IMG/VR virus record: IMGVR_UViG_3300025949_000016
Origin: a virus
Strand: one strand, 5' to 3'
Length of the DNA: 64,000 nucleotides
Shown: piece by piece, positions 31,472 through 49,827 of the stretch
Layout of the letters: the number at the start of each line of letters is the position of its first letter
How positions within the stretch are numbered: position 1 is the stretch's first letter
The notes under the pieces: generated by a model
Databases searched by the model: none
The model's input: the letters and a program-made list of their open reading frames with translations, nothing else
What the model was told of the DNA's origin: nothing
Made by a program: the position numbers and the translations under genes

Positions 31472-31872
31472 TTTCATGTATACCTTAAAATATATCCTAG
31501 ATAAAACAACAACTATTGAATCTAATGATTTAGCTCTTTTATATAAATTAGCCGAAAAATTATACAATAATAGACAAGGTAATCATTATCAATTATTTCT
31601 TAAAAATAGTAAAGATAAAGTGATAGTAGATTGGTCTTGTTCTTGTTATAGAGGATTAGATACTGAATTACCTTCTTTTAAGTATTAACTGCAACTTATG
31701 AATAAACTAATTCGATTAACAATAATCACTAAAAATGGAGTAAATATACTCTTAGGTAAAATAAGTTATATTGCTACCGATCATATCTATGGTACATTTA
31801 AAGATAAAAATCATACTTATAGAGGATTTATCACTAGTATAAATAACATTATTGAATTATCCATATTAAAAT

Positions 31873-32003
31873 AATAAACAGTACAGGATAAAGTAAAACA
31901 AACAGGTGAGCCCTTAGCCGCTACCAAGAAGCATATTCGTGAGGATATGTGGAGTAACCTGCTTTATTGAAATGAGATAACATCAAACAATGTACTGTTT
32001 ATT
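31873..32003 (+). ncRNA. candidate structured RNA (13-bp closing stem)
   Basis: AATAAACAGTACA/TGTACTGTTTATT; inner CAGGT/ACCTG and GCATATTC-GTGA-GGATATGT. Confidence 0.55.
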
Positions 32004-33358
32004 TAAACTTATTCATTAAAACCCTTCAACATGAAAGAACTTTTTAACAACGGAATGATTAAAGTCTATACAAATGGATTTGGAGAGATATTTATAGAAA
32101 GATTAAAATCCGTAGGTAAAGGAGTAGTAGTTAGGATAGGTCAAAATCCACAAGGACTAGAGATAACTGCAGACTCTGCTACTTTTCAACCTACATCATT
32201 TAATGGTTTAGGTGGATTTATCATTCGTTAACCTTTTTAGTCTCAACATACTAAGCTAGTGAGAGACTTTTCTTTAAATACCTCTATAAACTCATTATAA
32301 CCTATTTATGACACTCAATCAACTTATTGAAGAAGCTGGATCAAATGAAATAAGATTCAGAATAAACGAATTAGATTACGTTATATCAGATAATCCGCCA
32401 ATAAAAGGTGATACTGTTATTGATATAAGAAATTTAAGTTATGGTGTACATGATGGTATTGCTGGTAAATATATATGTGTACGTGATTCATTTGTAGTTG
32501 AAGGATGTGAACCAAAGTTCATTAAAAAGTTAATTTTAAAAACTATTGCTTAACCACAGCTTAAAACTAATTCATTATGAAACTATATCTCCTATATATC
32601 TTAAGAATACCTCTTTTTATAATATATTACATTTGTATAGTACCTGTATTCATACTATTTATATTAATTCATCCATATGATTGGGTATTAGATGAAATAG
32701 ATAAAGAAAAATATAAGAAAAAATAAATAATATATTATGAAACCAAATCAAGAATTTATTGACTGGGCTAAAGCTTATGATAAAAAACTATTTGAACAAT
32801 TAAGTTCAGTAAGTCTTTATCAACAATATCACTTTTATTCAGATGAAGGTGGTATATTAGGTAATCCTCGTTTTATAATAAGTGAAAGTGAAAAAGAAGT
32901 AGAATATTTTACTTATATTGGATTTATATTTGCAATAGATATTCGTAAATATATATTTGGTAGAATGGTAACTTGGATGTTATTAAATGAAGATTATAGT
33001 GAAAAGATTACTATAACTATAAACCCATAACCCATGCAAGATCAAGAGTTAAATAAACGACTTAAACAGATGTGGGCCATTGAAACAAAACTTCAAGTAG
33101 GTGATAATATTACTAAAGAAGAAAAAGAATTTTTTAATGCACATCTTAAAGAAATAAAAGAATACTATGAGGAGTGTTATAATAAATGGATAGAAATATA
33201 TCCACTAAAATAAACTCATTATGAAACTAACATATCAGGAGTATGAAATATACTGCTATGCTAATAGTATACGTAACTCTTTTGTATATTTTCATTTAAA
33301 GTTAAATATAGAAGGATGGGTTACTATTAATTATTGCTTTAATTAAATCTTCTAACCA

Positions 33359-33715
33359 ATGAAATACTTATTATTTATTCTCTTATTTTTTACTCTTTCT
33401 TGTACTGAACATCATAATAAATGGGTATTAAATATTCATCCTGGTATTGTTATAAACGATGATAATCCACTTTATGGATATCAAGTAACTGTCTTAGATA
33501 GTGGTAATATATATCATTGTAACATTGATAGAGATATGTGGAGATATATTTACATAGGTGATACAATTGTTAATTTTAATAACCTGCCGTTAAGATCTTA
33601 TCAATTACAATTAACCCAGTCTAGAATCTATCTATATGATGGTAATAGACTTGTGGATAGTTTAACGCCAGGCAATGATTCTCTTACATATATTATTAAT
33701 AAAGATAATTTATGA
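33359..33715 (+). CDS. putative lipoprotein
   Basis: MKYLLFILLFFTLSC lipobox; C-terminus similar to ORF 37449. Confidence 0.6.
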   Translation: MKYLLFILLFFTLSCTEHHNKWVLNIHPGIVINDDNPLYGYQVTVLDSGNIYHCNIDRDMWRYIYIGDTIVNFNNLPLRSYQLQLTQSRIYLYDGNRLVDSLTPGNDSLTYIINKDNL

Positions 33716-34641
33716 AAAAACTAATAGCTTTCTTACCCACTTGGATATTATTCTATACAGGTGATTTATTTTCAAGACTACCTTGGAAATGGAGCTGTAA
33801 TATATATAATTGGTGTATGCATATGTCCATTATTATACAAGATTGGGCTAAACTATCTAAGCCGTGGAAAAGAATAAATTAATATTTTATGAATACGATA
33901 GATCAAATAACTCTTGTTCAAACATGTGGAGCATGTCCAGAACAATATAATGCTTTTATTGATAATAAACAAGTAGGTTATTTACGTTTAAGATGGGGCT
34001 ACTTTAGAGTAGATTATCCTAATTGCTATGGAGAAACTATTTATGATGCAAATCCTAAAGGTGATGGTGAGTTCTATAATAATGAAAGAGAACATTATTT
34101 AACTGAGGCCAAACAAGCTATTATAAATCATTTAAATAATATAGAACCATGACCTCAGAAGCTTATGTACAATTGATTGAACCTGATGGTACACCTAATA
34201 TAATGGCCTTATTAAGTGAAGCTATTAAATGGTGCAAAGAAAACCCAGGTTGGTCTTGGAGATATCCTGAATTATAAAATTATTTATTATGCAACATACT
34301 ACTAGTTTTAACCGCAATTTAATGGACGGTAAAAGAAGAAATAAAGGTATTACTAAATATGGTAAGTATAAAAACTTATCAGAAAGATTAAAAGCTGAGG
34401 TTGAGGCTCGTCAACAATATGAGCAAAGAGTAAATAATCAAGAACCTAATAAAAAAGGCTTTTACGGTAATATAATTTAATAGTTTATGTTTACTATTGC
34501 TGGTTTAACATGGTTTGGTGTTTTACTAGGTAATATATTTTCTGCTATAATAGGTATATGTATAGGTAAATATTTAGCAGATTATATCGATAAGAAAGAA
34601 AAACAACAAAAAGATATTGATGATTTAATATCATAGATTAT

Positions 34642-34855
34642 TAATACTCAAACTCTTACCCTGCCTAGCCCAAGGGTAGCATTCCATAGACCTTAATATT
34701 AAACTACGATAGTCCCAAATTGAACTCGTATTGCAGTAAATTAGGATGTAACGGCGTAGACAAACAGTATTGGATACGAATAATACAGGATGTTTGTTAT
34801 TAAGTTAGGTGGTTAAATCGGGCAATGGACGATATGCATATGAGCTTGAGTATTA
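34642..34855 (+). ncRNA. candidate structured RNA
   Basis: TAATACTCAA-A-CTC / GAG-C-TTGAGTATTA closing stem; no ORF. Confidence 0.55.
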
Positions 34856-34856
34856 T

Positions 34857-35010
34857 AAAGAAAATAAGAATGTATTAACTCAGACTAGGATTATCCCTAA
34901 AGGGTAACAGAGGATGTTAATAATTAAATCTGAGGTTTAGAGTAGTGGAGTGGCCTAAAGCTACACATATTAAATCTCATAAACTATATACCGGAGTTCT
35001 TATTTTCTTT
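34857..35010 (+). ncRNA. candidate structured RNA
   Basis: AAAGAAAATAAGAAT/GTTCTTATTTTCTTT 15-bp closing stem with inner hairpins. Confidence 0.55.
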
Positions 35011-35017
35011 TAATTAC

Positions 35018-35159
35018 AAGTAATACAATAGTATGAGCAGCTCAGGGACGCCTGGAAGCATACTCTTAATCTACAATAAATGTAGCCGGTATCAAGATGC
35101 CGATTACCGTGGAATTAGTAGTAAACAGATATAACCACAATAGAGCTATTGTATTACTT
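35018..35159 (+). ncRNA. candidate multibranch structured RNA
   Basis: AAGTAATACAATAGT/GCTATTGTATTACTT stem; inner CTACA/TGTAG, CGGTATC/GATGCCG, GTGG/CCAC. Confidence 0.55.
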
Positions 35160-35248
35160 TATTTAAATTATTTAACTTTAGTCTTTATAGGCAGTTAGGT
35201 TGGTAAACAAAGAGGTTATTTCTATAGCCTCTTTTCTTTTTAACTTCT

Positions 35249-35462
35249 TATCTCTCTACACATCCTGGAGATAATTCTCACTAATAATAGACAGATTTGT
35301 TATAGTGAATTCTATACAAGGAGATAAATTATTAGTCTTCCCAGCAGGAGCTGTTGTAATAACCCGTGAGGGCTTAAGGAGTTAGGCGGGTGAGACTTTG
35401 ATCTCTATGAACCTTTGAAAGATAACGCAAACCTATCATTATAATAGTAGTGTAGAGAGATA
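35249..35462 (+). ncRNA. candidate structured RNA
   Basis: TATCTCTCTACAC/GTGTAGAGAGATA 13-bp stem; CCC-GTGA-GGG tetraloop. Confidence 0.55.
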
Positions 35463-36488
35463 TTTTTTAACCTTTAAATTTATTTGACATGGAATCCTTA
35501 TTAAATAAAGATCTTTCTCAATATACAGATGAACAAATAGTAGAAAGAATGAATGAAATTAAGGATATAGCAAAAGAATTTGAAGACTTATTAGATGAAA
35601 TGATGTGTAGAGAGCATTACCGAGAAAAAGAATATGATCCGCGTGATGAATGGCCCGAGCCTCTACCTTAACCTTTTAAACATGTATATATGAAAAAAAC
35701 TATTAAAGTAACCAAATACATAATAGGTGTGCTTATATATAGTGCAGTCATTTTTATGATTATAAAGGTATTTGGCATGCTTGGTAATATACATCAATAA
35801 CTAAACCCTTCAATAATGAAGAAGAACTTATTAAAAGCCGCACTTGTTATTTGCTATGTACCTTATTATTTATTTTCCATTCCTATAATTCTATTTGTTC
35901 TACCTTTTCAGGGCATAGAACATCTTATTGATCGAATAGAACACAAACTTTACATTCCTAAAAAAAATTAAAATACTACTTTCATACTTAGTATTTTAAT
36001 CCTCTCTGGCAGAAGGGGAGGTTAAACTGCCTGCTAATGTGAATGAAGGGTACCGAGTTGTAAGGGTTGTGGCTTTGTACCCATACGCACAGAGGGTGGG
36101 GATTTTTATCCTCACTCTCTAATTAAATCCCTTGAAATCTAGATAGAGGTTGAGAGAATTGTAGCGCTTGACTGTATTACAAGACTACTAATGTAGTTTA
36201 TATAAAGAGTGAAAGAGAGTGGGTTACGACTGTGCTGTTATTTCACTCTTTATGTAATACAGATATTTATTAATCATTAAAACTTATTTATTATGCTTAT
36301 TATTTGTATTCTTGGAGCAATACTTTTAGGAGCCTTGGCCAATGATTTTCTATGGAATTACATAGATAAGAAAAAATAAACCTTTTTATTATGAAATCCC
36401 TAAAATTTATAGAATATATAATACTATTTATAGTAATTATAATTATTATATCACTTGCTAGTATATTCTTATTCTAAACTAAACTCTT

Positions 36489-36569
36489 TGATACTTTGAT
36501 TATATCCAATTGCTGGTATTGAATCCTGAATTGGCAAGTAAGGTCGAACCTTGTATAATTGGAGTATCA
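36489..36569 (+). ncRNA. candidate three-way-junction RNA
   Basis: 16-bp stem TGATACTTTGATTATA/TATAATTGGAGTATCA with three G-U pairs; arms CCAATT/AATTGG and AAGGT/ACCTT. Confidence 0.55.
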
Positions 36570-36742
36570 TTAAGTTATAGCAACAGAAATAGCGCCAACC
36601 GAGTACAATTACACCGAAGAGGAGTCCATTTTGCAATATGGATGCTGGAGAACCAGTGCTACGAAAAGGGTATCGCGACAAAGCTATTGCTTTTTAACTT
36701 ATTAAGCTCCTATACACCTTATTGATAGATGAAGCCTTCGAT

Positions 36743-36872
36743 TCGTGGTTGGCAGAACTGGTAAATGCACCTGTCTAAACCCTAAAAATGGAGTATCTAT
36801 TTGGGCTAAAACGGGTTAGGTGACTGGATATTCTGTTACATCCTTCTATGAGTTCGAGTCTCATACTGCGAG
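36743..36872 (+). tRNA. tRNA-like RNA with an expanded anticodon arm and long variable arm (identity uncertain)
   Basis: acceptor TCGTGGT/ACTGCGA, D arm GCAG-AACTGGTAA-ATGC, T arm ATGAG-TTCGAGT-CTCAT; CCTGT/ACGGG stem encloses 36 nt. Confidence 0.55.
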
Positions 36873-36936
36873 GAGAAGAACGGATCAATAAGTGGGATTA
36901 TCCCTGTATAGGAGCTTATTTTTAAACTTCATTTTT

Positions 36937-37170
36937 ATGAAATATCTATTACTTATATTATATATATTTCTCATAAGCTGCGGTGGAGATACAGATTATC
37001 ATTTTGATGCTCATGGTCTCGATGGTAAGGACTATCATTTCATAATACATTCTAGAAATAGTATGTTAAGACCTATATTAAAAGAAGGAGGATGTATAGG
37101 TGAATATGATAGCGAAGATGTATATATGTGTGGAATAAGAGATTTTACATATTACACAACAAAACCTTAA
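36937..37170 (+). CDS. putative lipoprotein
   Basis: MKYLLLILYIFLISC; start corrected from the track start, which lies inside the RNA stem. Confidence 0.55.
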   Translation: MKYLLLILYIFLISCGGDTDYHFDAHGLDGKDYHFIIHSRNSMLRPILKEGGCIGEYDSEDVYMCGIRDFTYYTTKP

Positions 37171-37180
37171 ATTAATCTAT

Positions 37181-37414
37181 ATGGATAAAATAGACTTGGA
37201 TAAGATATTCTACAAGGAATGTCGAATGTATATTTTTAGTGGTGATGTCTCGAAAGAAGAAGTTTTTGATTGTATGAAAGCAGCTATTCATCAAGCTCTT
37301 GTATTGGCCAGTGAAAATGCTCTAGCAAATAGAGTATATCTTCCTCAAGGAGGGTATCGAGATACAACCGTGGACAAACAATCCATATTAGATATAGAAA
37401 AACTTATTGTATGA
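37181..37414 (+). CDS. hypothetical protein, paralog of 47236-47493
   Basis: shared KI.LDKI...MK....AL.LA..NA....DKQSIL.IEKLI. Confidence 0.7.
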   Translation: MDKIDLDKIFYKECRMYIFSGDVSKEEVFDCMKAAIHQALVLASENALANRVYLPQGGYRDTTVDKQSILDIEKLIV

Positions 37415-38411
37415 CAACATTTCTTAAAATAACAGTAATTGAATTAATATGAAATATATCCTTATTACGGTATTTATTGTTTCTTTAATTCTTTTTATGT
37501 TTGCTGAATTTCACCATACTTCCAAGCCTAATAACCAGTATGAATTAATTATTTATCAAGATCATATTGATTTGAAAGACGGTAAAAGAATTGTAGTAGA
37601 AAATATCTCATGGGATAGTGTTGGTGAATTAAAAAGAATTATTGAACAAGATAATCTTTAACTTCTTACGTATAAAGGTAAGCTATAATAAATAGGTGGG
37701 ATTTTAACTTTTTAAATCAAAACTTATGAACCTTATTTGCGATATAAATCACAACGATTATTCAGATATGATATTTGATGTAGATTATTAAACTTGTTCG
37801 AACTGTTAAGATTGCAAAGGTGTAATCTTTCATTGTAGGTACATTAAGCCTACTTTAACTTATTAAATTAATTAACTTATAATATTTATCCTATGTATAT
37901 CTTATTAACAAATGGTAGACTTATTGAAACTGATAGAATAATAGCAGTTAATAAAGCATTAAAAGTTACTATTAAAACAGATAAAATCAGCATACTCACT
38001 GAAACTATTGCTTTTGAAAACATACAATCTATCACCATAGAAAAGCCCAAACAATGATTGAAAAGAAAAATCTTCATCGTGAAAAATCACGTGAAGCTAA
38101 ATATATACCAAAACCTAAACCTAATGGATGGTTTGGCCCTGATAGCGGTGATCCTGAACAAATGGGATTAAACAGGCATTGGAATCGTAATTCTAAAAGG
38201 ACAAAAAAGAAATAATGAAAATACTTCTCTTTATTATTCAAACACTTGCAAATTTATGCTTATTCTTTTGTATATTTACTATAATTTGTTATATCAATAA
38301 CAAAGCTAATGTTATAATAGCCAAAGAATGGTTTAAAATTCCTGTAGAATTAGGTGCAGGTATATTATCTTATCAAATATTTGATAAATTGTATATTAAA
38401 ATGATTAAGTA

Positions 38412-38891
38412 ATGATAATAGCAGTTACAGGTCACCGTCCTAAAGATATAGGTAATGAGTATGACTATAAAGGTCCTTATACTACTTATATTAAAAACGC
38501 ATTACAGGCTATTATAGACAAATATAGACCAGAGTCTATGATAAGTGGCATGGCCCAAGGTGTAGATACTATATGGGCTCTATTAGCCTTAAAAAATGGC
38601 ATACCATTAATTTGTGCTTGTCCTTGTAGAAATCAAGAAGTTAAATGGCCTGAAAAAGCAAGAAAGTTATATCGTACTATACTTTCTAAAGCCTCTAAAT
38701 GTATTTATGTAACTGCAAATTATGATAAATTATGCATGGATAGACGTAATCAATACATGTGTAATAATTGTAACTTATTAATAGCTGTTTGGAATGGAAA
38801 TAATCATGGTGGTACATATAATTGTATAGAGTATGCTAAATCTATTGGTCGAGAAATAAAATACATTGATCTTAAATACTTTACACCATGA
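38412..38891 (+). CDS. SLOG superfamily YspA/DUF1273-like protein
   Basis: IAVTGHRP, ISGMAQGVD, RNQYM, GGTYNCIEYA. Confidence 0.85.
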   Translation: MIIAVTGHRPKDIGNEYDYKGPYTTYIKNALQAIIDKYRPESMISGMAQGVDTIWALLALKNGIPLICACPCRNQEVKWPEKARKLYRTILSKASKCIYVTANYDKLCMDRRNQYMCNNCNLLIAVWNGNNHGGTYNCIEYAKSIGREIKYIDLKYFTP

Positions 38892-39205
38892 AATGTTTAC
38901 TTATTCTATTATTATTCATTAATTCACCAGTTAATCTCAAATTAAACTTTTAACCCCAAAACAGACTGAAAATAAACCTTAAAATAACATGAAAAAGTTA
39001 GAGTTACACAGAATACTGTATAAATCTTTTATAGAGATAGGTATAGATGAAGATAAGGCGGGTAAACTTTCCAACCTCCTATCTAATGAGCTTTATTTAG
39101 ATAAAACATCTCTTTTAAAAGAGCTAAGTATGGTAGCAGATGGTCTATTAAAAACCAAATCAAAGCTTATTGCTGGAACTACTTAAGTTTGAGCTTTCTT
39201 CTGTC

Positions 39206-39235
39206 AACTCCCATCTTAATAGGTGGGAGTTTTTT
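39206..39235 (+). terminator. rho-independent terminator
   Basis: AACTCCCATCT-TAAT-AGGTGGGAGTT-TTTT. Confidence 0.7.
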
Positions 39236-41262
39236 CATTTCTATCTACCTCAAAACTAAAACCAATGGACCAAGATTTTGACATATTTGTAAAAAGTAAC
39301 AGATGGCAAAATTATACTTCTATTGACGGATCGAATATAGTGAAAGCTTGCTATAAAGAAGATAAAATTAACGATACAAGTCATTTTGATGCTTTAGTAT
39401 TATACCTTGAAATTTATCACCTAGAAACTATTTTAAACCCTCACTTAAACTAATTATATGAATACCCTAGTTAAAGAAAAAGAAGAAGCCATGAAGTGGT
39501 GGAATAAATTACCCTTTGACCAAAAGAAATTTCATGCCGGCAGTAGAAATCCCAATAATCTCACTGGTAGAGAAATTCACATTATTTATAAAAACTCGCT
39601 CAAATAAACTTCTTACACACATAGAGAGCGCGTGTCACTGGGAGTATACTTGCCTCCTCGCTGAGCACCAAATAGACAAAATCTAGAATTTGGTCGCTAT
39701 GAAGGGTGCGTTAAACCCTTTATTTTAACTATCAAATCTAAGTATATGACAGAAAAATCAGTAAGTATTATAAGAGAAATGGCGGAGAAATTATCTATCG
39801 TTAATGTAGATGGACATGTTACTTTTATCATGAAAGAAGATATTGAAAAAGATGGTAAAACATTTGACCATCCTACAGTACATATACATGAAGAAGTATT
39901 AGATTCCATTACGGATAGTAAAGCGTCAGATAATACTATGGTTAAAGAAATTATACATGCCATGGATATAGTAGCATAAATTTTGGTTTATATATGTTGG
40001 AAAAATACCCTCCTGTATTTTTATACTAGGAGGTCTTCTAAATTACGCTTTATGAAAGAAATAATTGTAAATATTTGCTTTATTAGTATCCTTATAATAA
40101 TAACTCTTTTATTTGTACTAATATGTGGATTACTTATATTAAGTGCTCCATGGCCTGCGCTAGTATTTCTATTACCCATATTTATAGTAGCTATTATTTT
40201 AGCTATAATGGCTATAACAGATCTAATTAAAGATACATTCTATTAATTCATATTCTATGAGCTATATATTAAAAGAATCAAAAAGAAGAAAAGATTTTAA
40301 AGGAAAGGAAAGATTAACAGATAAGGAGTATCAAATGCTCGCTGAAAACTTAAAACTATATTATCGTAAATATACTAAAGATGACTTAGATGAAGATTTT
40401 GATAATATAGATCAACAATTAAATCTAAATCGAGAAGAATATTTTTAAAACTAATACTTATGGAAAACAAACTATTCTGCAGACCTATAATCCTCCCAAT
40501 AAAGGATACTTTTACAAGAGAAGAAGTAAAGAAAATTCTTCTTGAGCATTTCGTACATACATGGTATCCAAATCCATGTCCAGAAGGTTCCGATCATGAT
40601 AAGAATAGGCAAAGAATTAATGAATGGTTCGATAAAAATTATTAACATGAACAAAATAGAAATAGTAAACGATGATTATCTTCCTGGTAATGATGTTAAA
40701 CCTCCCATTAAAATAGGTGAACAACATTTTGTATTAAGAGAACACGTATGTAAATGTGGTGAGATTCATTTAGATATTGGACTCAAATCTGAATATAACT
40801 TCATTACTTGTTATAAATGTAGAGAAGATCTACCAGAAAGTGAAAATATTCACTGGATTAATCAATGTAGAACTAAATCTATAAGTATATGATTCCAAAA
40901 AGCTCCCAAGAAAAATTAGCTCTCAAGCAAGCTAAAAAATCATATAAAAACGCTCAAAAAAAGCTTTTTAAAGGAGAAGATTTTGATGATCTTCTTATGC
41001 ATCCTAAAGAGAAAATCTTGAAAAAAGAAAAGATAACCTCCGGTATTATGGATGGAGAAGAGCCTTTAGATGATAATTATCCCGTTTATGCAGGTTACTG
41101 TTACGTAATAGACGATGAACAAGGTAAAGTAATCTTCTCTCACGTTAATACCAATATAAAAGGATTTAAGCAAGCTTTACGAGCACAAGGTTATAAAGCC
41201 AATATTGTATTTAACTGCAAAATGGCAGCTAGAAACTTATTTTAACTTTAAACTTTCCTATT

Positions 41263-41997
41263 ATGAACAGCGAAATTTATGAGAAAAACCTACCTATTAT
41301 AGAAGAACTCTATAGAAAAAAAACAGGTTATTATATAAAAGTAGCCTATAATATTTGCAAAGATATGAATATAGCTAGAGAAGTTGTATCTGATGCATTT
41401 TATAAAATTCTTAACTATGATAAATTACTAAAACCTGCCTATGAATCACACTCTTTAATGATATTGGTTGTTAAACAACAATTATTTAATAAATTTAAGA
41501 GAAATTCCATTAAGAAAAAAATAATGGAGCTTATTGATTATGAATTAGTCACAGAACCCAATCTTGGTAAGATATCTTTATATCCTACTAGTTCTGTTAT
41601 ACAAAAGCGAGTAGAAAAGCTATCAGAACGAGATAAAATAATTATTAAGTCCCGTTATTATAAAGAAATGTCACTAAAGGATATGGCTGATATCTACAAG
41701 ATGAATCTTAAACAAATTCCAACAGTTTGTCAAAGAATACTTAATAGGCTAAAAAGAAAAGATCCTACAGAAAATAGACGAGGATGGAATCAAAAAGCCA
41801 ATCGAGAAACTGCTCGTAAGCCGCCCGCTTTTGCGTTTGAAATCATAAAAATGAGGACATTGGGGCTTACTTATACAGAAATAGGTAAGGCTCTAGAGAT
41901 GAATGCAAAAAAAGTAAAAAATACCTATAATCATTATGAAAGAAAAATAAAGAACGGTATTATTGATAAAGAAACACTTCTTACTATAAAAAATTAA
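41263..41997 (+). CDS. sigma70/ECF-like factor with an extra C-terminal HTH
   Basis: region 2-like 'IAREVVSDAFYKI', region 4-like 'KLSERDKIIIKSRYYKEMSLKDMAD', additional 'GLTYTEIGKALEM'. Confidence 0.7.
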   Translation: MNSEIYEKNLPIIEELYRKKTGYYIKVAYNICKDMNIAREVVSDAFYKILNYDKLLKPAYESHSLMILVVKQQLFNKFKRNSIKKKIMELIDYELVTEPNLGKISLYPTSSVIQKRVEKLSERDKIIIKSRYYKEMSLKDMADIYKMNLKQIPTVCQRILNRLKRKDPTENRRGWNQKANRETARKPPAFAFEIIKMRTLGLTYTEIGKALEMNAKKVKNTYNHYERKIKNGIIDKETLLTIKN

Positions 41998-43083
41998 CTT
42001 TTATGAAAAAGAAAAGACTTTTTTTAATATTGCTTAAAATGGCAATACCAAACTTATTAACAGTAAATACACATGATGATATGTCATGTAGCATTTCTTA
42101 TCGAGCAGGTGATTCTATAGGACATTTAGAGTGTAGTTTAAAAGAGTATGAAACCGCAGCTAATTATCAAGGTAAAAAGTTTGCTGGATTTATGGATCAA
42201 CTAATCCTTAATACATGAAAACAATATTCTATGTCTTAATAGTGTATGGATGTCCAGCAGCTGCAATAGTATCTCTAGTTTTCATACCTATTTATTGGGA
42301 TAATACTGGGCCATTTAAGGGATATGCTATCATTAAAAAATATACCACTGAAAGTGGAGATAGAAGACTTATTATTACTAAAAATGGAGATACAAGAGAT
42401 GTGAGGGATTCCGACTCTAAAATATATAACCTAGGAGATACTTTAAAATAATCCTTTATGACAGTACAAAATAAATTGATTGAATTAAAGATTAGTTTTA
42501 AAGTAAAGGATTTTTATCCCCACCATTATTTATTGATTGAACTAAAAAATAATGAGGTTTTATTCTTAGATACGGAAGAATGTGTAAAAAAAAGACATTT
42601 CAGCGCCATGTATTCTTATGAAATATCTTGCTATAATAGTCTAGCATATCCTCACTTAATTCACTTTACTGAGATTACCCATACTAAAGAAGGTAGAAAG
42701 ATCATGGAAAGATATACTTCTATTTCAAGAATTCATTTATACAATAAACATGACAACACTCACTAGGAGAATTATTAAAGCATATACTTTAATAGGGTTT
42801 ATTGTATGTATAATAATTCTAAATTGCAAATCTTGTAATCATGAGCAGACTATGCTTATGTTATGGGGATTTGGACTTCCATTATTTTTTATGGTAGCAG
42901 ATACCTTTAACAGACATATTGAGTAACTTACTACCTTAATTATAAAATCAATCTTGCACTAGCCTTTTGGACCTTAGATCCTTATCAACTTCTTACAGTT
43001 GATCGGTGCACAGATTGATTGTAATGTTTAAATACCGTTAAAAGCCACGGTTTCTTATTTTTTAACAATTTAAACAGTTTTTT

Positions 43084-43614
43084 ATGATTAAGGTATTAGA
43101 CCACGGGGCAAAGACCCGTATCAAAGATCCAGTAACCGGAAAATGGAACGAAATGATTAATGTTCGTTTCATTGAAGAAGGACGTTCTGGTGGTAATGTA
43201 CAAATGAGTGAATCAACCAGCTTTTTGGACTCCGTAATGGGAGAACAAACTGGTCTTGCTACTCGTAGAATACATACCCATCCAGTATTGGCTAGTAAGA
43301 TAGATTTGTTTCCGGTAGGTAAAACATTACCTGGCCACATTAATCGTAACTTGTATTCTACACCTCAACTAAGGCAACAAGAGGGTGTAGATGCACGTAT
43401 GATAGATGGTAAACTTACCTATTTTACTACATACTTGTCTAGTAAACCTGAAGCAGACAGAGACTCTAGATGGTCCATTAGCGAGACATTGCTCGTTGAT
43501 CCACAAGGTCTTAAACATGTCCAATTAGGTTCTGCACTAGTAGAAGTATTGGAAGAGCATCCTGGTGAAGTCATCCAAGGTCCTGGCGCTCCAGGAGAAG
43601 AATTGGGTGAATAA
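43084..43614 (+). CDS. hypothetical protein, possibly ssDNA-binding
   Basis: beta-rich with acidic C-tail, followed by terminator-like hairpin 43633-43660; function is inference. Confidence 0.45.
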   Translation: MIKVLDHGAKTRIKDPVTGKWNEMINVRFIEEGRSGGNVQMSESTSFLDSVMGEQTGLATRRIHTHPVLASKIDLFPVGKTLPGHINRNLYSTPQLRQQEGVDARMIDGKLTYFTTYLSSKPEADRDSRWSISETLLVDPQGLKHVQLGSALVEVLEEHPGEVIQGPGAPGEELGE

Positions 43615-45002
43615 TTCCAATTAAAAGCTGAATAAGGGAGGAGGTAACACTTCTCCCTTATTTATTACTAACGAAAATTACCATATGGTTTTTATATTAA
43701 TACTTATTATACTTTTTGGGTAGACTCGCTTTCAGTAATAAGTATTGTAAAGAGTGTAAATTGTAATTTTGAATCTTTGCCATGAACCTCTGTGTTTCTA
43801 CATGGAGGTTTTATTTTAAAACTTATTTTATGAGATATGAAAGAATAACTAGAAAACTAAAAGGAGAATTAATTGAATCACTTATTAAATCACCTCACTT
43901 TAATATCAATGATTTAGCCGTAGAGAGTGATAAGATGATTGACTGTTGGACTTTTTTATCCAAGAGTGAGCCTTATTTTGGTTATAGCTTAGAAAAAACT
44001 GAAACAGGAGAATTTTATGAATTCTTTTCAAATTAAACTATTATGATTCGAGAATTTTCACAGAAAAATAATATCTTTTACCTTGCTTTTTTAGTAGCAG
44101 AGTTAGATGATATAGGAAAAGATACACTTATTTACACGGCAAAAACCCGCCCAAAAGAGTTTCTAAATAAACTTATTCATACTCCTTTATTTGAATTACA
44201 CGAGTATTTAAAGAAGGTTGAAAAAGAAATGAAGAAAGAAACTAACAATGCATTAAATATTATTCTATATTCTTAACTTGTTAAACACTTATTATGCATG
44301 TAATTATAACGGTGGTTACTGTTCTTTACATTGTTATTAAATTCTTATTTAAAGCAGCTTATGCACCACCTAAGAGACATCGTTGATTAGTAGGCGTTGT
44401 TGACACATGGGGAGGTAGGTACAAAACTATCTCCCTTTCTTATTTATTTTAAAAATCACCATACATGAAAAATTTTATTGTCTTTTTACTCTTTTTTGTT
44501 GAATTTATCTTACTCTCTTGTTTTATTGGGTTTATTTGGTATTTAGCTGATAATGGAATGCCTTTTGCACACGTTCATTACCTTGAAAAAATGACCTCTG
44601 TACTTTTAGTAGTAATAGGACTAGCAGGTCCCGCAACTGCTGGAATATTTGTTGGCAACAGAATAAGTAAATTAATAGATTAAATTATATATATGACCAA
44701 AAGTAAATGGCTAAGAACAAAAAAGAATAATGGACCTCACGCTAAAGCAAGAAGAATTATTGCATTAGCAGCTCTTGAGAAACAACTTGAAATAATAAAT
44801 AATTCTATAACAAGAGATAAAGAAACAATAAAAGACTATAAAAATCCAAATAAAAAGCAAGTATTAGAAGAAGAATTTATAAAAAGAAATATATTAATTC
44901 TTGAGAAAGGCATTGAAAAAGATTATCCTAAGAAAATAGCAAGAATAAAGAAAGAAATTGAAATATTAAAAACAAGAATCTAATAATTAAAATCCGTATT
45001 TT

Positions 45003-45176
45003 ATGGCAGAAATGCAAAAAGTCCAATGTAACTGTGAAAATTCCTTCTTAGATAAGCAACTTGGCTCAGGTATAAGATGGGGAAATCCAACCGGAAAAAT
45101 GGATAAAGGAGATCTTTATCGTTGTGTTTCATGTGGAAAAGAACATAGTATCGTTAAACATCCAAAGAAAAAATAA
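45003..45176 (+). CDS. small Zn-ribbon-like protein (57 aa)
   Basis: manual translation MAEMQKVQCNC...YRCVSCGKEH. Confidence 0.6.
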   Translation: MAEMQKVQCNCENSFLDKQLGSGIRWGNPTGKMDKGDLYRCVSCGKEHSIVKHPKKK

Positions 45177-45199
45177 AATCTTTTAAACAAAAAACAAGT

Positions 45200-45550
45200 A
45201 TGATTAAAAAAACAATGTTTCTTTTGCTAGCAGCCGTGCTAGCTATTACTTATGTGAAAGGCCAACAAGTTCAGGTCTCTGGCTATGATACTGCTAAAAC
45301 AGGTTGTACCTACGTCATTAATCCACAAACTTTTGAATTAAAGAGTGGATATTTAATGAGAGTTACCGCCTATCAGTGGGATTATCAACCTGCCCAGGGA
45401 AATAAACAGAACGCAGACTCACTAACACTTGTGAAGGTTAAAAAACCAGTAGCCAATAGTTATTACCTGATCCGAGATTCAGCTAATAAAAGAATTTGGG
45501 TTAAGGTTCAACCTATACAAGATTTCAATGTTGACTTTACACTTAAGTAA
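45200..45550 (+). CDS. secreted hypothetical protein
   Basis: signal peptide ending VKG-Q. Confidence 0.6.
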   Translation: MIKKTMFLLLAAVLAITYVKGQQVQVSGYDTAKTGCTYVINPQTFELKSGYLMRVTAYQWDYQPAQGNKQNADSLTLVKVKKPVANSYYLIRDSANKRIWVKVQPIQDFNVDFTLK

Positions 45551-45584
45551 ACCCTTTTTATTAATTTTTCAATAATTGTTTTTT

Positions 45585-46220
45585 ATGGAACATCAAGCAA
45601 ACACCGAAAGCCTGAATTTAGAAGCACTCAAGAAACGTGATTACATTATCCTAGTGGATAAGAGTGGTTCTATGAGTGAAAGAGATTGTCCTAATAACAT
45701 GACGCGTTGGATGTATATGCAAGAAGAAGTTCTTGCCCTTACTCGCAAAGCGCTAGAGTGGGATGATAACGGTATTACTGTAGGAGTTTTCAATAACAAA
45801 TGGAAATTCTACGAAAATGTTAACAGTGAAGATGTAGTTAAGAAGATCTTTACTGAGAACGAGCCAAGCGGCACTACCAATACTGCAGGTGTACTCAACG
45901 AAGTTCTTAACACCTACTTGAACAATCGTGCTAATGCTAAACCCATTACAGTAGTAGTAGCTACAGATGGTCAACCTGATAGCAAGGATGAGCTTCGTAA
46001 GACAATCATTCACGCTGCTAATACTATTGAGCGCGATGAAGAGATTGGTATCTCTTTTGTTCAAATTGGTAAGAACGGTGAAGCCACCGCTTTCTTGAAA
46101 GAGTTGGATGATGATCTTCAGGGTGAAGGTGCTAAGTTTGACATTGTAGATTGTGTAACTTGTGATGAAATGGGTGATAAATCCATTACTGACATCCTTG
46201 TTGGCGCAGTTTGTGATTAA
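45585..46220 (+). CDS. von Willebrand factor A (vWA) domain protein
   Basis: MIDAS DKSGS, GTT, VATDGQP, FVQIG, LDDDL; ATG at 45585. Confidence 0.88.
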   Translation: MEHQANTESLNLEALKKRDYIILVDKSGSMSERDCPNNMTRWMYMQEEVLALTRKALEWDDNGITVGVFNNKWKFYENVNSEDVVKKIFTENEPSGTTNTAGVLNEVLNTYLNNRANAKPITVVVATDGQPDSKDELRKTIIHAANTIERDEEIGISFVQIGKNGEATAFLKELDDDLQGEGAKFDIVDCVTCDEMGDKSITDILVGAVCD

Positions 46221-46598
46221 TGATTAACAGTAAAGGGAGTGGTTTTCTATTTCTTTGATCTCTCCACTCCCTTTATCTTATAACTTTTAAATTTAATTTT
46301 ATGTGGTTTATAGTAGGTTTTATAATAGGTTGTGTTGTTGGTGTATTATATGGTAAGAAGATTGCAGCTAAAGCCGCTGAAAAAGCAGCTGAAATTGCTC
46401 AAAAAGCTAGTGATTTAAACAAAAAAGTACAAAGTAAATGACACCTTTAGTTTGGTTATTCTTCTTTTTAGCTTGTTTTTTCTCCTGGTATATTACACGT
46501 AAAATAACCGTCTTTTTAGAAAGAAGAAAGTTCAAATCTATTTTAAAAGATATTGATAAGACGCATGGAACTGCTTATCATAAATTTAGATACAACAA

Positions 46599-47255
46599 AT
46601 GATACAATCATTACTGATTATACTTAACTTGTTCCTGGTTGAAGTTAGTTTGAGTTTAGATAATTCTGCTGTCATATCACTGCTAGTAAAGAATTTACCA
46701 CCTAAAGATAGACGTAAAGGACTTACCTATGGTTTACTAGGAGCTTTCTTGTTTCGTGGACTGTCTTTATTTGTAGTAAACTGGCTAGTGAAACTATTCT
46801 ATTTAAAAATATTAGGAGGCCTTTACTTAATATGGCTAACATTTAAGTATAATAACGGTAATGATAAAATTATCAAAACGTATTCCAACTTATGGAGAGT
46901 TATACTAAGTGTTGAGATCATTGATTTAAGCCTCAGTTTAGATAATATTTTTGCTTGTGCTTCTTTAACTTCTAACATCTATCTAATATGGATAGGAGTC
47001 TTCTTAGGTATTATTGCTATGCGTTTTGTAGCAAGTTGGTTTACTATTTTACTTAACAAATATCCTTACTTAGAAACCGCAGCTTATTGGGTTATATTCT
47101 TACTAGGCTTAAAATTAATTATAGAAGGTATAGGTAAATGGATTAATCCTACTTTCTATATATCTGAAACGATTAATTTTATATTTAGTGGAGTAAATAT
47201 GGTTATATTTTTATTACCTATTATATTTAATAAAAATGGAAAAGATAAATCTTGA
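46599..47255 (+). CDS. terC: TerC-family integral membrane protein
   Basis: EVSLSLDNSAVI, GLLGAFLFR, IDLSLSLDNIFA, GIIAMRF, YPYLE. Confidence 0.88.
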   Translation: MIQSLLIILNLFLVEVSLSLDNSAVISLLVKNLPPKDRRKGLTYGLLGAFLFRGLSLFVVNWLVKLFYLKILGGLYLIWLTFKYNNGNDKIIKTYSNLWRVILSVEIIDLSLSLDNIFACASLTSNIYLIWIGVFLGIIAMRFVASWFTILLNKYPYLETAAYWVIFLLGLKLIIEGIGKWINPTFYISETINFIFSGVNMVIFLLPIIFNKNGKDKS

Positions 47256-47493
47256 TAAGATATTAAGCGATGTTGGTTATATAGGTCCAAGAGATGATGA
47301 CAAAGAATTAAATAATATGCCAATGTCATTAATAAAAGAATTAATGAAAGAAACTGCTAAAAAAGCCTTACAATTAGCTGCGGATAATGCAACAGCTACA
47401 GCTCATGAAGATTCAAGTGATTATGGAACAGGAAAAATATGGGCTACAATAGACAAGCAAAGTATACTTTCAATTGAAAAACTTATTGAATAA
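47236..47493 (+). CDS. hypothetical protein, paralog of 37181-37414
   Basis: see shared motifs under 37181. Confidence 0.7.
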   Translation: MEKINLDKILSDVGYIGPRDDDKELNNMPMSLIKELMKETAKKALQLAADNATATAHEDSSDYGTGKIWATIDKQSILSIEKLIE

Positions 47494-47520
47494 TATTAAC
47501 TACTCTGTGAAAACTAAAAT

Positions 47521-47592
47521 GGTTCCATAACACAATGGTTAGTGTAATCGCCTTCTAAGCGATCTATTCCAGTTCGACCCTGGATGGAACTT
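47521..47592 (+). tRNA. tRNA-Arg(UCU)
   Basis: canonical cloverleaf; ATCGC-CT TCT AA-GCGAT; T loop TTCGACC; no encoded CCA. Confidence 0.9.
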
Positions 47593-48070
47593 CAAAAATA
47601 AATTTGGTAGTTTAGTTGCTTTCAGAGCAGAAAAATATAAATTCAAGATAATTCTTGATACTGTATCAGTTATTAATAACTCTATTGATATAGTAGAAAA
47701 AGTAAATTATAATCTAACTTATAATGAAATTAACAAGTTATGACAGATAAACAATTTCTAACTAAACTAGAAAAGAAATTTCCATATGCCTATTCTTTAA
47801 TTCCAAAGATTATGTGGATATGGATATTCAATAATCTTTATAATGACAAAGTAATAAAATAAAGCTTATGTTTATAGAAATAGATGGATTTATAATCAAC
47901 AGTCATTATATTAAAAGAACATCAGATATATTTAAAATGCCACTTGCTAGTACAAGAGCTTTTAACATATACATTGTGGATTCAGAACCAGTAACAATTA
48001 AAGGTACTGAAGAAGAAATTCTTATTAAGCACAAGAAATTACAAAAAATCTTAATAACTAGAAAAGTAAA

Positions 48071-48547
48071 ATGAAACTCGCTGTTATTGGAGAAAACTTT
48101 CAGTTCTTACAAGAAGAGTGTTATTCTGGAGAAAGATCTGTCAAGATTAACAGTCTACTCACTGATTATTTAATGGACTATAAAAATGTGGTTTGTGTTA
48201 CTAATTTAGATCCTGGCGTTGGGTTTATCTGGTCTTATTTAGCTATTGAAGAAAATCTTCCTTTAGTTGGTATAATACCTACTTCTAATTTTTCTACAGA
48301 TTTCTGCGCATTAGATGAAGGATTATATAAAGAAATGATTGGATATAAGAATATGGAACTGCTTATTTATGGTTCAGGAGATGTTACAGAATATAAGAAA
48401 GAAAATAGAAACCGCCACATTATCTATAATTCTGATATTACTTTATTATTAGGCAGTAGTACGATTATTAAAAACTTAAGTCATTACGCCAATTATTTAA
48501 AAAAAGAAATTATTACTATTTCTACTGAACAAATACTTAAATTATGA
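48071..48547 (+). CDS. divergent SLOG/YspA-like protein
   Basis: MKLAVIG, LDPGVG..W..LA, RNRHIIYNSD align loosely with ORF 38412. Confidence 0.55.
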   Translation: MKLAVIGENFQFLQEECYSGERSVKINSLLTDYLMDYKNVVCVTNLDPGVGFIWSYLAIEENLPLVGIIPTSNFSTDFCALDEGLYKEMIGYKNMELLIYGSGDVTEYKKENRNRHIIYNSDITLLLGSSTIIKNLSHYANYLKKEIITISTEQILKL

Positions 48548-49546
48548 AATATTATTTACCGTATGTTTGTGTTATTTTAGCTTGTTTTGTAGATTGGAAA
48601 CTAGCACTTATTATAGTAGGAGCTTACCGGTTATTAGTAGGAGGTGGTGTAGAAATAGCTACTATTATAAAACTACAAAAAGATAACAAATACATGATTT
48701 GGTTTACCAAAGAATCCAAAACTATTATTGGTGAAATTGGACAATTAAAAAAAGAGATATTAGAGATAGCAAATCTGTATAGTATAAGAGAACCTTATTT
48801 TGAGCAGTTTTACTATAAAGAAGAACTCTTATTTTCTTATGATTATAGTAATAAAAAGTTAATCCGCAGCTATACAGGTAATGATGAGCAAATTTTACCT
48901 ATTTTTAATAATATAGACTTAGGTATTAAGATACATGATTTTTGCGTATTAGCAGATGAAAAAGAAAAACTGCTATCTAGAAACTTTGATCATATTCAAG
49001 GAACTAATAAATTTCAATTTTTATTGCATACTATAAGCCATAATTGTTTTATGTATTTAGGAGTAATTGAATTAAATATGTTCTGTATTTATAGAAATTT
49101 CTCTTTTATGGAATCTCTTCTTTTATTATTGTGCTATTTAATCCCCATGAATTATGAAAAAGACCCACAAAAAATTTATAAAAAAGCTTAGAAAATATCT
49201 TAAGGATGCTCCTGATTTGCGTGTAACTCAGGCGCTATATAATTTAGGTGTAACGCTTGGAATAAGGAAAGGCACTGAACTCAAACCAGAATACTACTTT
49301 ATAGATAATTATAATGAGACGGATGAAGTAATTCTAAAAAGAATGAAAAACTTTTTAAAACATGGGAAGAAGCAAAAGATCGAGAAACGGATCGAGGAAG
49401 AAATACAATCATCCACCGGAGGTAATACTCAAGAAGGAGAGTAAAGAATTTATTGAAAGTGGTGGAGAACTTGTGCCTTTATCTCTTTATGGCACAAAAG
49501 TACTCGATTATAATAAAACCCGAGATTTATTAAAGAAATCAAAATA

Positions 49547-49827
49547 ATTGGTATAAATAAAGAGTGAGATAAGTAATAATAATTTCAATCAAGTCTGAGG
49601 ATAGTACAGAACAACGATTGATTAGTTGACCAAGTAGTCTCAATAGAAAGCTTCTATATGTATTAGTCTTTCTAGGTGGATGAACGTGATATGAAAATGA
49701 ACTAAGTAGGTGCGTTTTAACTCCTCATTATGGATAGAAAGATAGTCTTATCGTGAGGTAGGAGCATGACTCCAGTAATAGGTGAAATATTTTGCGGTGG
49801 TCGACTTGTCTCACTCTTTATACCAAT
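49547..49827 (+). ncRNA. candidate structured RNA (~280 nt)
   Basis: TAAAGAGTGAGATAAGT/ACTTGTCTCACTCTTTA 17-bp stem extended by ATTGGTAT/ATACCAAT; TCTTATC-GTGA-GGTAGGA. Confidence 0.6.

Follow-up and report, generated by a model that had tools for sequence, protein, structure and literature searches.

Paired-end noncoding modules in the early region of a crAss-like phage: candidate RNA scaffolds with exchanged interiors

Why should the early region of a phage contain gene-free segments whose two ends are complementary to each other? In the virus studied here (IMG/VR record IMGVR_UViG_3300025949_000016), which is an uncultivated Crassvirales-like (crAss-like) phage of ~148 kb from soil and rhizosphere metagenomes, about ten ORF-free segments of this kind add up to ~1.9 kb of clamped noncoding sequence. 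A reading made from the sequence alone had regarded them as one dispersed family of modular RNAs that are excised from the early transcript and act as decoys, sponges or ribozymes. We analysed the stretch of 64,000 nucleotides in which they lie, hereafter the window, together with the matching loci of related phages. The coordinates of all features are collected in Table 1.

Clamps between the early genes

All ten segments were indeed closed by complementary arms. When a clamp was defined as a pair of perfect Watson-Crick arms of at least 13 bp with a span of 50–320 nt, the window contained seven, whereas 40 dinucleotide shuffles yielded 1.3 ± 0.9 and in no case more than 3. These seven clamps, which start at 31873, 34857, 35018, 35249, 36202, 36703 and 49557, were without exception located inside the ORF-free segments. 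This showed that the clamps exist and exceed chance. When G-U pairs were freely allowed and clamps of at least 10 bp were counted, there was no enrichment (929 in the window versus 950 in the shuffles), and it is therefore only their context that speaks for the 10–11 bp arms at 34642, 36172 and 42946. Whole modules also folded better than shuffled DNA, with z-scores of −3 to −6 in nine of the ten. The interiors without their arms, which had been described as multi-hairpin sequence, were as stable as shuffles (mean z −0.5 on the + strand, none below −1.6), and their multi-hairpin look is what is expected from any sequence of such composition.

Over all clamps, the paired positions comprised 156 Watson-Crick, 4 G-T, 1 A-C and 1 other. 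G-U pairs, previously reported for several arms, were present but confined to the two clamps at 36489 and 49557, and the A-C pair is contained in the clamp at 34642, where it would favour the opposite strand. Since the window clamps are almost purely Watson-Crick, a recent DNA-level origin fits them as well as selection on RNA does. As had been stated, the arms mostly differ in sequence, the exception being an 11-nt core, ATAAAGAGTGA, common to 36202–36253 and 49557–49821. The three units of 214–216 nt, noted earlier for their length, shared no sequence with each other (similarity z ≤1.3). Shared sequence was limited to the one arm pair, and perhaps to A and B as well, and these comparisons did not show that the modules descend from a common ancestor as a single homologous family. 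The recurrent C-GTGA-G loop fared better: the + strand of the 64-kb window has three CGTGAGG sites, and each of them belongs to a module.

The modules were also shown to pack like genes. They occupy the gaps left by + strand ORFs with hardly any remainder, start 0–6 nt past upstream stop codons and tile 34642–35159 with spacers of 1 and 7 nt, and independent gene callers likewise left the segments without genes in the ENA and Logan assemblies of the same phage. Their GC content of 0.373, with G exceeding C, resembles that of + strand ORFs, whereas other intergenic DNA has a GC content of 0.258 with less G than C, and is 11 GC points poorer than the module interiors. Furthermore, an intergenic motif found ahead of ORFs also precedes modules 35249 and 36703 in equal register. 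Intrinsic termination as a general function of the modules was considered and rejected, since their loops measure 40–250 nt, against the short loop on a G+C-rich stem that defines such a terminator, and a U-tract mostly does not adjoin them; a T-run follows a module directly only at 35462 and 36918, and 10 nt past 49827. The conventional terminators of the early arm have stems of 10–12 bp that are similar in make to the clamps.

Table 1. Clamped modules and neighbouring features of the window
Feature	Position	Strand	Arms or helices	Folding z	Other parts and flanks
Clamped module	31873–32003	+	13-bp perfect arms	−3.8	Starts on stop codon of ORF 31698–31874; C-GUGA-G hairpin 31931–31952
Array unit 1	34642–34855	+	10 bp perfect; 17 bp if one A-C and a mismatch are included	−1.6, weakest of all modules	Starts 6 nt past stop of ORF 34487–34636
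Array unit 2	34857–35010	+	14-bp perfect arms	−3.1	1 nt past unit 1
Array unit 3	35018–35159	+	14-bp perfect arms	−4.1	7 nt past unit 2
Terminator-like canonical hairpin and T-run	35209–35244	+	Hairpin 35209–35234		Ends the three-unit array
Unit 4	35249–35462	+	13-bp perfect arms	−4.4	C-GUGA-G loop inside; motif TTTAACTTCTTA upstream in register; TTTTTT downstream
Structured segment, GC-rich (0.44)	35985–36130	+	No single closing clamp	−3.1 on +, −1.4 on −	Absent from the earlier list
Module	36172–36262	+	Outer clamp 10 bp, inner helix 13 bp (36202–36253)	−6.2	
Element A	36489–36569	+	P1 16 bp with three consecutive G-U pairs		
Spacer module	36579–36700	+			Separates A and B
Element B	36703–36918	+	P1 14 bp, P2 9 bp, side hairpin P3 36891–36904		Conserved internal loop, variable insert; TTTAACTTATTA upstream, TTTTT downstream
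B insert, predicted tRNA-like fold	36742–36873	+			ARAGORN with intron option
Small clamped module	42946–43020	+	9 + 6 bp	−4.4 on +, −5.0 on −	
Terminator-like hairpin	43034–43051				Downstream of module 42946–43020
Largest module	49547–49827	+	11 + 18 bp, one G-U	−3.1	Starts on stop codon of ORF 49362–49547; C-GUGA-G loop; T-run 10 nt 3′

Elements A and B in related phages

Homologues of element A were retained at the same position in at least six related contigs, and those of element B in at least eight lineages or related contigs. For the other eight modules none was found in any relative searched, so that comparative support comes from A and B alone. Both elements occur once per genome and are syntenic in every relative, and their scaffolds were 93–100% identical while the flanking genes reached only 43% (protein) to 89% (DNA). 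The closing helices and junctions were near-invariant, and every substitution preserved pairing on the + strand, being either compensatory or of the G-U type. Among six variants of A, all 96 P1 cells were Watson-Crick or G-U, with two positions changed on both sides; a small conserved hairpin (CAAGG..CCTTG) directly adjoining the 3′ strand of P1 was also changed on both sides among relatives, and the remaining interior was variable. In B, whose P1 plus P2 include a 1-nt bulge, the substitutions in these helices turned G-C into G-U or U-A into U-G, and P3 displayed three compensatory pairs. By such covariation, A and B are shown to be conserved on the + strand, and the earlier preference for + strand RNA over a DNA cruciform is supported for these two of the ten.

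The scaffolds enclosed six mutually unrelated inserts in A and eight in B (17–136 nt), and even close relatives with 100% identical arms had unrelated inserts. Comparison of the contigs shows that payloads are replaced between related phages, and the modular character proposed at the outset, with one scaffold and unrelated interiors in different phages, is firmer than a reader of the window alone could know. No interior was conserved between lineages, and hence nothing shows selection on the payload. Contigs with a common insert carried it in one orientation only, in a small sample. In one relative (G001), B is a near-empty hairpin of 93 nt, which indicates that the hairpin can stand alone, and in another (G006) a 63-nt insert beside B is flanked by an 11-nt direct repeat, a sign of insertion events at this locus. 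The slot between A and B is occupied in relatives by a further clamped RNA (L045, L053) or by a small ORF (G001, G006, L051).

In the phage studied here, the B insert is predicted to fold like a tRNA. Measured against a cloverleaf with a 7-nt anticodon loop, the fold has the acceptor, D and T arms and a variable arm that is long; its anticodon arm is interrupted, and only with the intron option does ARAGORN call it, as tRNA-Leu(tag) with a 39-nt intron. It was reported neither by default ARAGORN nor by the Rfam tRNA model, no close homologue was found among the tRNAs of the complete relative G008, and its T-arm/acceptor 22-mer was absent from the genome contigs searched. The other seven B variants are without a tRNA-like insert. 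In two lineages, tRNA genes lie 5–7 nt downstream of B.

Candidate explanations: stable RNAs, tolerated filler or DNA elements

The explanation that we prefer, albeit with less than even confidence, is that the modules are stable early-strand RNAs with a terminal helix that is conserved as a scaffold and an interior that can be replaced as its payload. They would be read from the + strand along with the early genes of this ~148-kb crAss-like phage of soil Bacteroidota, and the 5′ and 3′ ends of each would pair as a long terminal helix that serves as the functional scaffold; in A and B, the junction would be part of it, too, as would a small side hairpin that stacks on the helix. Most likely, such a scaffold would delimit and protect a discrete stable RNA. 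The helix could provide the duplex that a host enzyme of RNase III type would process, could act as an exonuclease barrier or, in 35249–35462, 36703–36918 and 49547–49827, as a terminator stem, because T-runs come after these three. Related phages would exchange or replace the payload wholesale between the short conserved arms, the payload of B in this phage would be a tRNA-like RNA, and the region may be the counterpart of the relatives' RNA-gene zone with tRNA genes beside B. Transcription, processing at the helix and any payload function are what we infer; the reading is favoured because the clamp enrichment (7 versus 1.3) is found in ORF-free gaps only, modules adjoin stop codons and tile 34642–35159, their GC and skew match + strand ORFs and not other intergenic DNA, the scaffolds of A and B persist amid diverged flanks, and pair-preserving changes occur in P1 and the inner hairpin of A and in P3 of B. 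In addition, it draws on the unrelated inserts of both elements, the tRNA genes near B in two lineages and the predicted tRNA-like fold inside B here, the ORF-preceding motif in register before 35249 and 36703, the terminators after the three-unit array and module 42946, and the confinement of CGTGAGG to modules. Against it speak the interiors that are no stabler than shuffles, the lack of any interior conserved between lineages, the eight modules without a homologue in the relatives searched, and the nearly empty B of G001.

With respect to processing, the RNase III hairpins of phage T7 (R1.1 type) lie between early genes and measure ~60 nt with small loops. The clamps are alike in being intergenic stem-loops of an early polycistronic arm with a conserved lower helix and a variable upper part, and the stacked P1 and P2 of B (~23 bp) approach the RNase III size requirement. 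In contrast to the T7 sites, the modules enclose 40–250 nt and most clamps have only 13–18 bp. If near-continuous double-stranded RNA of at least 20 bp (about two turns) is taken to define a T7-type site, the helices of B (14 + 9 bp) and 49547 (11 + 18 bp) and most others, with 13–16 bp followed by further predicted pairs, are only compatible with RNase III excision. No phage RNase III gene was found in the relatives G001, G002, G008 and G009, and cleavage would therefore need a host enzyme.

The main rival, which we consider possible and less probable than stable RNAs, holds that the hairpins alone are functional and that the interiors are neutral filler in their apical loops, tolerated provided that the arms can still meet. 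The hairpins would punctuate early transcripts, be it by termination, by RNase III cleavage or by stabilising mRNA, and the filler could derive from decayed tRNA or ORF fragments or from DNA captured in repair at fragile palindromes. This would account for the average interior z of −0.5, for unrelated inserts between identical arms in close relatives and for the almost empty B of G001, but ~1.9 kb has been kept although phage genomes are compact. The direct repeat around the insert in G006 and the near-perfect clamps, as expected for the halves of one former palindrome, are also in its favour, whereas the three tightly abutting units resemble an RNA operon rather than adjacent palindromes. Punctuation agrees with the T-runs after three clamps and with the similar make of the early-arm terminator stems. 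The interiors, however, are richer in GC than intergenic DNA and, like the transcribed strand, have more G than C, which argues against filler because old neutral filler should have drifted to intergenic composition. Moreover, the recurrent C-GUGA-G loop and the complete predicted tRNA-like fold suggest a selected RNA, and no host-derived fragment was found in 401 sampled Bacteroidota genomes.

A further-reaching reading, which we regard as unlikely, is a system of RNA cassettes. A protein of the host or the phage would recognise three-way-junction scaffolds that do not vary (A, B and analogues), and these would display interchangeable payloads, tRNA mimics included. Related phages would swap the payloads by recombination between arms of 30–45 nt, under an arms race with those host defences that detect or cleave RNAs, tRNA for example. 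Such a system, if true, would be an RNA-level counterpart to gene cassettes or morons.

Also unlikely are DNA-level elements, whose inverted repeats would either be the recombination sites of invertons or terminate miniature transposable elements. Invertons are invertible promoters that are common in Bacteroidota. Like them, the modules belong to a genome associated with Bacteroidota and have perfect inverted repeats of 13–18 bp around noncoding DNA of 100–300 bp; with 75–280 bp between the repeats, they are what inverton finders are made to detect. The inserts also vary between strains, and one arm core is common to two modules. For the arms as a whole, no consensus emerged that would convincingly suit a single recombinase, the best k-mers being marginal after correction, and contigs with a common insert agree in orientation, again in a small sample. 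Unlike invertons, the units abut in tandem (spacers 1 and 7 nt), three G-T mismatches in a row are retained in A, and the substitutions in A and B are all G-U-compatible on one strand. An inverton is therefore improbable. A MITE or insertion sequence, which would have many copies with identical terminal repeats at different loci, was rejected, since the arms all differ bar the one 11-nt core and in every relative A and B occupy one constant locus in a single copy; that the modules are not MITE copies had been correctly recognised.

Within the window, the Rfam 15 covariance models matched only a tRNA-Arg (47521–47592), with no module at the gathering threshold. At E up to 5–10, nothing credible, Y RNA included, appeared in 31–51 kb or in 34.6–36.95 kb, and the relatives' loci gave tRNAs only. 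No module matched a ribozyme or any other family, and the decoy, sponge and ribozyme roles were left unsupported. Retron msr-msd RNAs are closed by inverted repeats (a1/a2) and have a reverse transcriptase gene next to them. YrlA, encoded beside a Ro60 (TROVE) gene, is a modular noncoding RNA in which a long stem joins the 5′ and 3′ ends and serves as the scaffold that binds the Ro60 protein, with a tRNA-mimic effector module opposite, and some YrlA-type Y RNAs are phage-encoded and co-transcribed with tRNAs (PMC4201824). A known paired-end RNA-protein system of either type is largely refuted and very improbable, for although the architecture resembles both, with inverted repeats as in retrons and a closing stem plus predicted tRNA-like domain in B here as in YrlA (PMC4201824), no RVT_1 match was found in the complete relatives G001, G002 and G008 and no RT domain in a Pfam scan of 20 window ORFs, Ro60/TROVE had no match in four relatives and the single vWA protein of the window (45576–46220) is of TerF type without TROVE, Rfam gave no Y RNA or other family even with E values of up to 10 allowed, the scaffold has no sequence relation to YrlA, and the tRNA-like domain is confined to one of eight B variants.

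Relation to other phage elements and significance

Non-tRNA noncoding RNAs of phages are poorly charted, and for crAss-like phages no description of them was found in the literature searched. The tRNA cluster of phage T4 encodes two stable RNAs of unknown function, species 1 and 2 (rnaC/rnaD). The modules, if they are stable RNAs, would resemble these as small non-tRNA RNAs placed head to tail with tRNA genes and presumably cut from a common precursor, but there is no sequence relation, and an invariant scaffold with swapped interiors is not known there. In T4-type phages, PeSL (promoter-early stem-loop) cassettes shuffle small early genes. Here, too, a short conserved motif and a stem-loop punctuate a hyperplastic early region and related phages differ by swaps of the segments between them; PeSLs are direct repeats around ORFs, whereas the modules consist of inverted helix halves with the swapped, mostly noncoding piece inside.

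From the comparison of relatives, A and B appear to be two families absent from Rfam, in which helix and junction are fixed and the enclosed sequence is swapped, and both can be used as seeds for covariance models. The modules thus appear to be new RNA scaffolds of phages. Should their payloads be functional, phages would have a new route for diversifying small RNAs. If they are not, the long-range hairpins of large Bacteroidota phages would be conserved punctuation of the plastic early region and hot spots for the capture of sequence there.

Clamps and setting of the early-arm modules

The clamped modules of this uncultivated crAss-like phage, ORF-free stretches closed by complementary arms, lie among the very small ORFs that make up its plus-strand early arm (29.3-62 kb). 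The complementary ends claimed for ten such segments in the sequence-only reading were indeed present in all ten. Counted blind, perfect Watson-Crick arms spanning 50-320 nt formed seven clamps of at least 13 bp in the window, compared with 1.3 ± 0.9 (maximum 3) in forty dinucleotide shuffles. This ruled out a chance origin of clamps of this length, and all seven sat within the ten segments. When G-U pairs were allowed, arms of at least 10 bp were no commoner in the window than in the shuffles; short arms are thus no evidence by themselves, and the permissive count was dropped as a statistic. The earlier argument that G-U pairs reveal the strand proved weak within this genome, where the clamps contain 4 G-T pairs as against 156 Watson-Crick pairs, besides 1 A-C and 1 other.

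The segments coincide with gaps between plus-strand ORFs, and gene callers run independently on this phage placed nothing in them. Modules start 0-6 nt downstream of the preceding stop codon, and the spacers between array units 1-3 measure 1 and 7 nt. An ordinary gap that served as negative control was clamp-free and had a fold z of +0.2. The GC content of the modules is 0.373 with G>C, while that of plus-strand ORFs is 0.301 with G>C and that of the remaining intergenic DNA 0.258 with G<C. The C-GUGA-G tetraloop (CGTGAGG), previously noted as shared by three modules, has three plus-strand occurrences in the window, each of them inside a module. Terminator-like hairpins of the conventional type follow the three-unit array and the module starting at 42946. 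Just outside the module set, a long imperfect inverted repeat lies within an ORF-free gap.

The motif TTTAACTTNTTA has 13 matches in the window, compared with 4.9 ± 2.0 in shuffles, and is placed almost only in plus-strand intergenic DNA, 1-16 nt ahead of start codons; looser copies stand at the same distance ahead of many early start codons. It precedes unit 4 and element B in the same register, T-runs follow both of these modules, and it is kept ahead of element B in relatives. In this phage group, TTTAACTTNTTA may mark gene starts or serve as an early promoter. The early arm also encodes several proteins with recognisable domains. A permuted tmRNA was called in the window by ARAGORN at a relaxed threshold, with no tmRNA hit in Rfam up to E = 1. 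The relative G008 has a tmRNA of the standard type.

Features of the window and of related contigs, with their coordinates
Sequence	Feature	Position	Strand	Remark
Window	Module	31873-32003
Window	Array unit 1	34642-34855
Window	Array unit 2	34857-35010
Window	Array unit 3	35018-35159
Window	Unit 4	35249-35462
Window	Element A	36489-36569
Window	Element B	36703-36918
Window	Insert of B	36742-36873		tRNA-like fold
Window	Side hairpin P3 of B	36891-36904
Window	Terminator-like hairpin	35209-35234		after three-unit array
Window	Terminator-like hairpin	43034-43051		after module 42946
Window	Ordinary gap	37662-37892		negative control
Window	ORF-free gap	30707-31192		486 nt
Window	Inverted repeat	31022-31189		44-nt arms, 70% complementary
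Window	TTTAACTTNTTA copies, examples	30769, 30882, 35239, 36693, 37657, 37703, 37854, 44272, 52185	+
Window	YpsA/DprA-like SLOG protein	38412-38891
Window	Sigma-70 region 4 protein	41263-41997
Window	vWA (TerF-type) protein, then TerC	45576-47255
Window	Permuted tmRNA call	51829-52162		29-residue tag ending MAA
L030 (G008)	tRNA Met-CAT beside B	7700-7771	-
L051	tRNA Ser-GCT beside B	393-480
L024 (G006)	CTTAAGCTCCT-flanked insert	~14095-14170		immediately upstream of B

Elements A and B in related phages

Genes for the portal, large terminase, major head protein and ribonucleotide reductase lie in the minus-strand half of the window. At 26-28% identity, the terminase matches that of crAss-like phages of Bacteroides, with further matches in Flavobacterium and Cellulophaga phages, and the phage TerC gene is nearest to versions from Chitinophagales, Sphingobacteriales and Saprospirales. 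Complete relatives of 148-156 kb are present in IMG/VR, namely G001 (terminase 72% identical), G002 (63%) and G008, and contigs of 148.4-148.7 kb from the phage itself exist in ENA and Logan assemblies. The rhizosphere samples ERZ27252098 and SRR5508059 contain this phage, and the contigs with conserved elements derive from soil and rhizosphere-type metagenomes.

Homologues were obtained for two of the ten modules only, elements A and B, and each relative carries only two or three clamped modules. DNA searches of the related genomes G001-G011 returned A and B alone; the other eight had no counterpart in any relative searched, and blastn of these against INPHARED phages gave nothing. The exact arm pattern of unit 3 had no match in IMG/VR, and the arm core that modules 36172-36262 and 49547-49827 have in common, queried with 20-50 nt between its copies, retrieved nothing but terminator hairpins of jumbo phages, unrelated to the modules. 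Strain variants offered no micro-covariation, since two contigs from another sample (L059, L100) are 100% identical; a third (L060, 99.2% identical) ends before the array. A synteny check of module 49547 showed its neighbouring protein to be missing from relatives.

Element B occupies the same place in G001, G006, G007, G008, L045/G009, L048/L053 and L051. The contigs carrying it are 93-100% identical over the initial 35 nt and the final ~46 nt of B, whereas its surroundings are less alike (neighbouring protein 43% identical in G001; downstream DNA 89% in G006). These ends fold into a scaffold of a 14-bp closing helix (P1), a 1-nt bulge, a 9-bp helix (P2), a conserved asymmetric internal loop and the side hairpin P3, which abuts the 3′ strand of P1. 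The internal loop, checked by eye, did not match the K-turn or loop-E consensus. Substitutions in P1 and P2 convert G-C to G-U or U-A to U-G, and three pairs of P3 are altered on both sides, with an A-C in one variant. The scaffold encloses eight distinct inserts of 17-136 nt that resemble neither each other nor sequences of the window or its relatives; the G001 version is a near-empty hairpin of 93 nt. In G008 and L051, B is followed after 5-7 nt by an ordinary tRNA gene (Met and Ser, respectively). Upstream of B in G006, a 63-nt insert is bounded by copies of an 11-nt direct repeat, CTTAAGCTCCT, the first of which pairs with a short, incomplete 3′ arm; the arrangement resembles a scar left at the scaffold by a duplication or insertion.

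In element A, P1 comprises 16 bp, and the six variants form a Watson-Crick or G-U pair in 96 of 96 cells, with double-sided changes at two positions. A conserved inner hairpin adjoins the 3′ strand of P1 (kept in L045 with a different sequence), and the other interior is unrelated between variants. Between A and B, three lineages have a clamped RNA, and three others a small ORF in its place. In both elements a small hairpin stacks on P1 at its 3′ strand, and the words TGTATA and GGAG are common to their 3′ arms; judged by these likenesses, A and B may be old paralogues.

Pairing that holds on one strand only, arms whose spacing varies and side hairpins that covary together argue for a single-stranded fold of the plus strand. 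These comparisons point to A and B, at least, being RNA made with the early genes from that strand.

Interiors and competing readings

Since the terminal helix and junction are conserved, they are the selected part, and the interior is replaced wholesale. We tentatively favour the reading that the modules are stable RNAs with a replaceable payload. An identity as RNA genes is favoured by how the modules are packed, which is gene-like, and by composition, the tetraloop, the common upstream motif and the link to tRNAs.

The main rival holds that the hairpins alone matter and that the interiors are tolerated filler. Indeed, the interiors, described earlier as multi-hairpin, were without their arms no more stable than shuffles (mean z -0.5, + strand), and this random-like stability fits filler, as do the near-empty B of G001 and the absence of payload conservation among relatives. 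The GC excess of the modules and the compactness of the genome speak against it. We regard this rival as rather unlikely.

An all-against-all blastn-short comparison of the inserts with the window and relatives' sequences gave self matches only, and 401 Bacteroidota genomes gave only AT-rich, non-significant matches outside the payloads. The three units of 214-216 nt, singled out earlier for their length, have unrelated sequences, and a shared origin was rejected for want of similarity. Arm motifs common to the modules (ATAC/GTAT and TAATAC/GTATTA) were only marginal after correction. Modules 34857-35010 and 31873-32003 aligned with a z of 3.7 over mononucleotide shuffles, the sole such pair of 21; their A-rich arms may be behind this. 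The Rfam scan proposed earlier matched no family to the modules, leaving them without a known RNA family identity. The decoy, sponge or ribozyme roles suggested earlier are speculative. The tRNA-like insert of B was called by ARAGORN as tRNA-Leu(tag) only with a 39-nt intron, and in an alternative parse a CUA (amber) anticodon is split by a 29-nt hairpin. It was not reported by the Rfam tRNA model, its 22-mer had no match in genome_contigs, and it shows no similarity to G008 tRNAs.

Readings at the DNA level, such as an inverton or a MITE, appear improbable. Homologues supported the earlier preference for RNA over a DNA cruciform in the case of A and B. Comparative evidence thereby extends to two modules out of ten. 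A known RNA-protein system is a very remote prospect, as the complete relatives yielded no RT (which speaks against a retron or DGR), no TROVE (which speaks against Y RNA) and no phage RNase III gene.

Small stable RNAs of phages are a known kind, and so are RNase III hairpins. Neither Rfam nor the searchable literature offered a precedent for a scaffold that stays invariant around unrelated inserts at the same locus in at least eight phages, or for a crAss-like phage with an array of modules of this kind. G008 has 23 tRNA genes, including a CTA suppressor, and a tmRNA, while G001 has 2 tRNAs and the window 1; RNA-gene content is therefore very variable in this phage group. In the stable RNA modules that we favour, the helix would define and protect the molecule, and the interior would be the part open to replacement.
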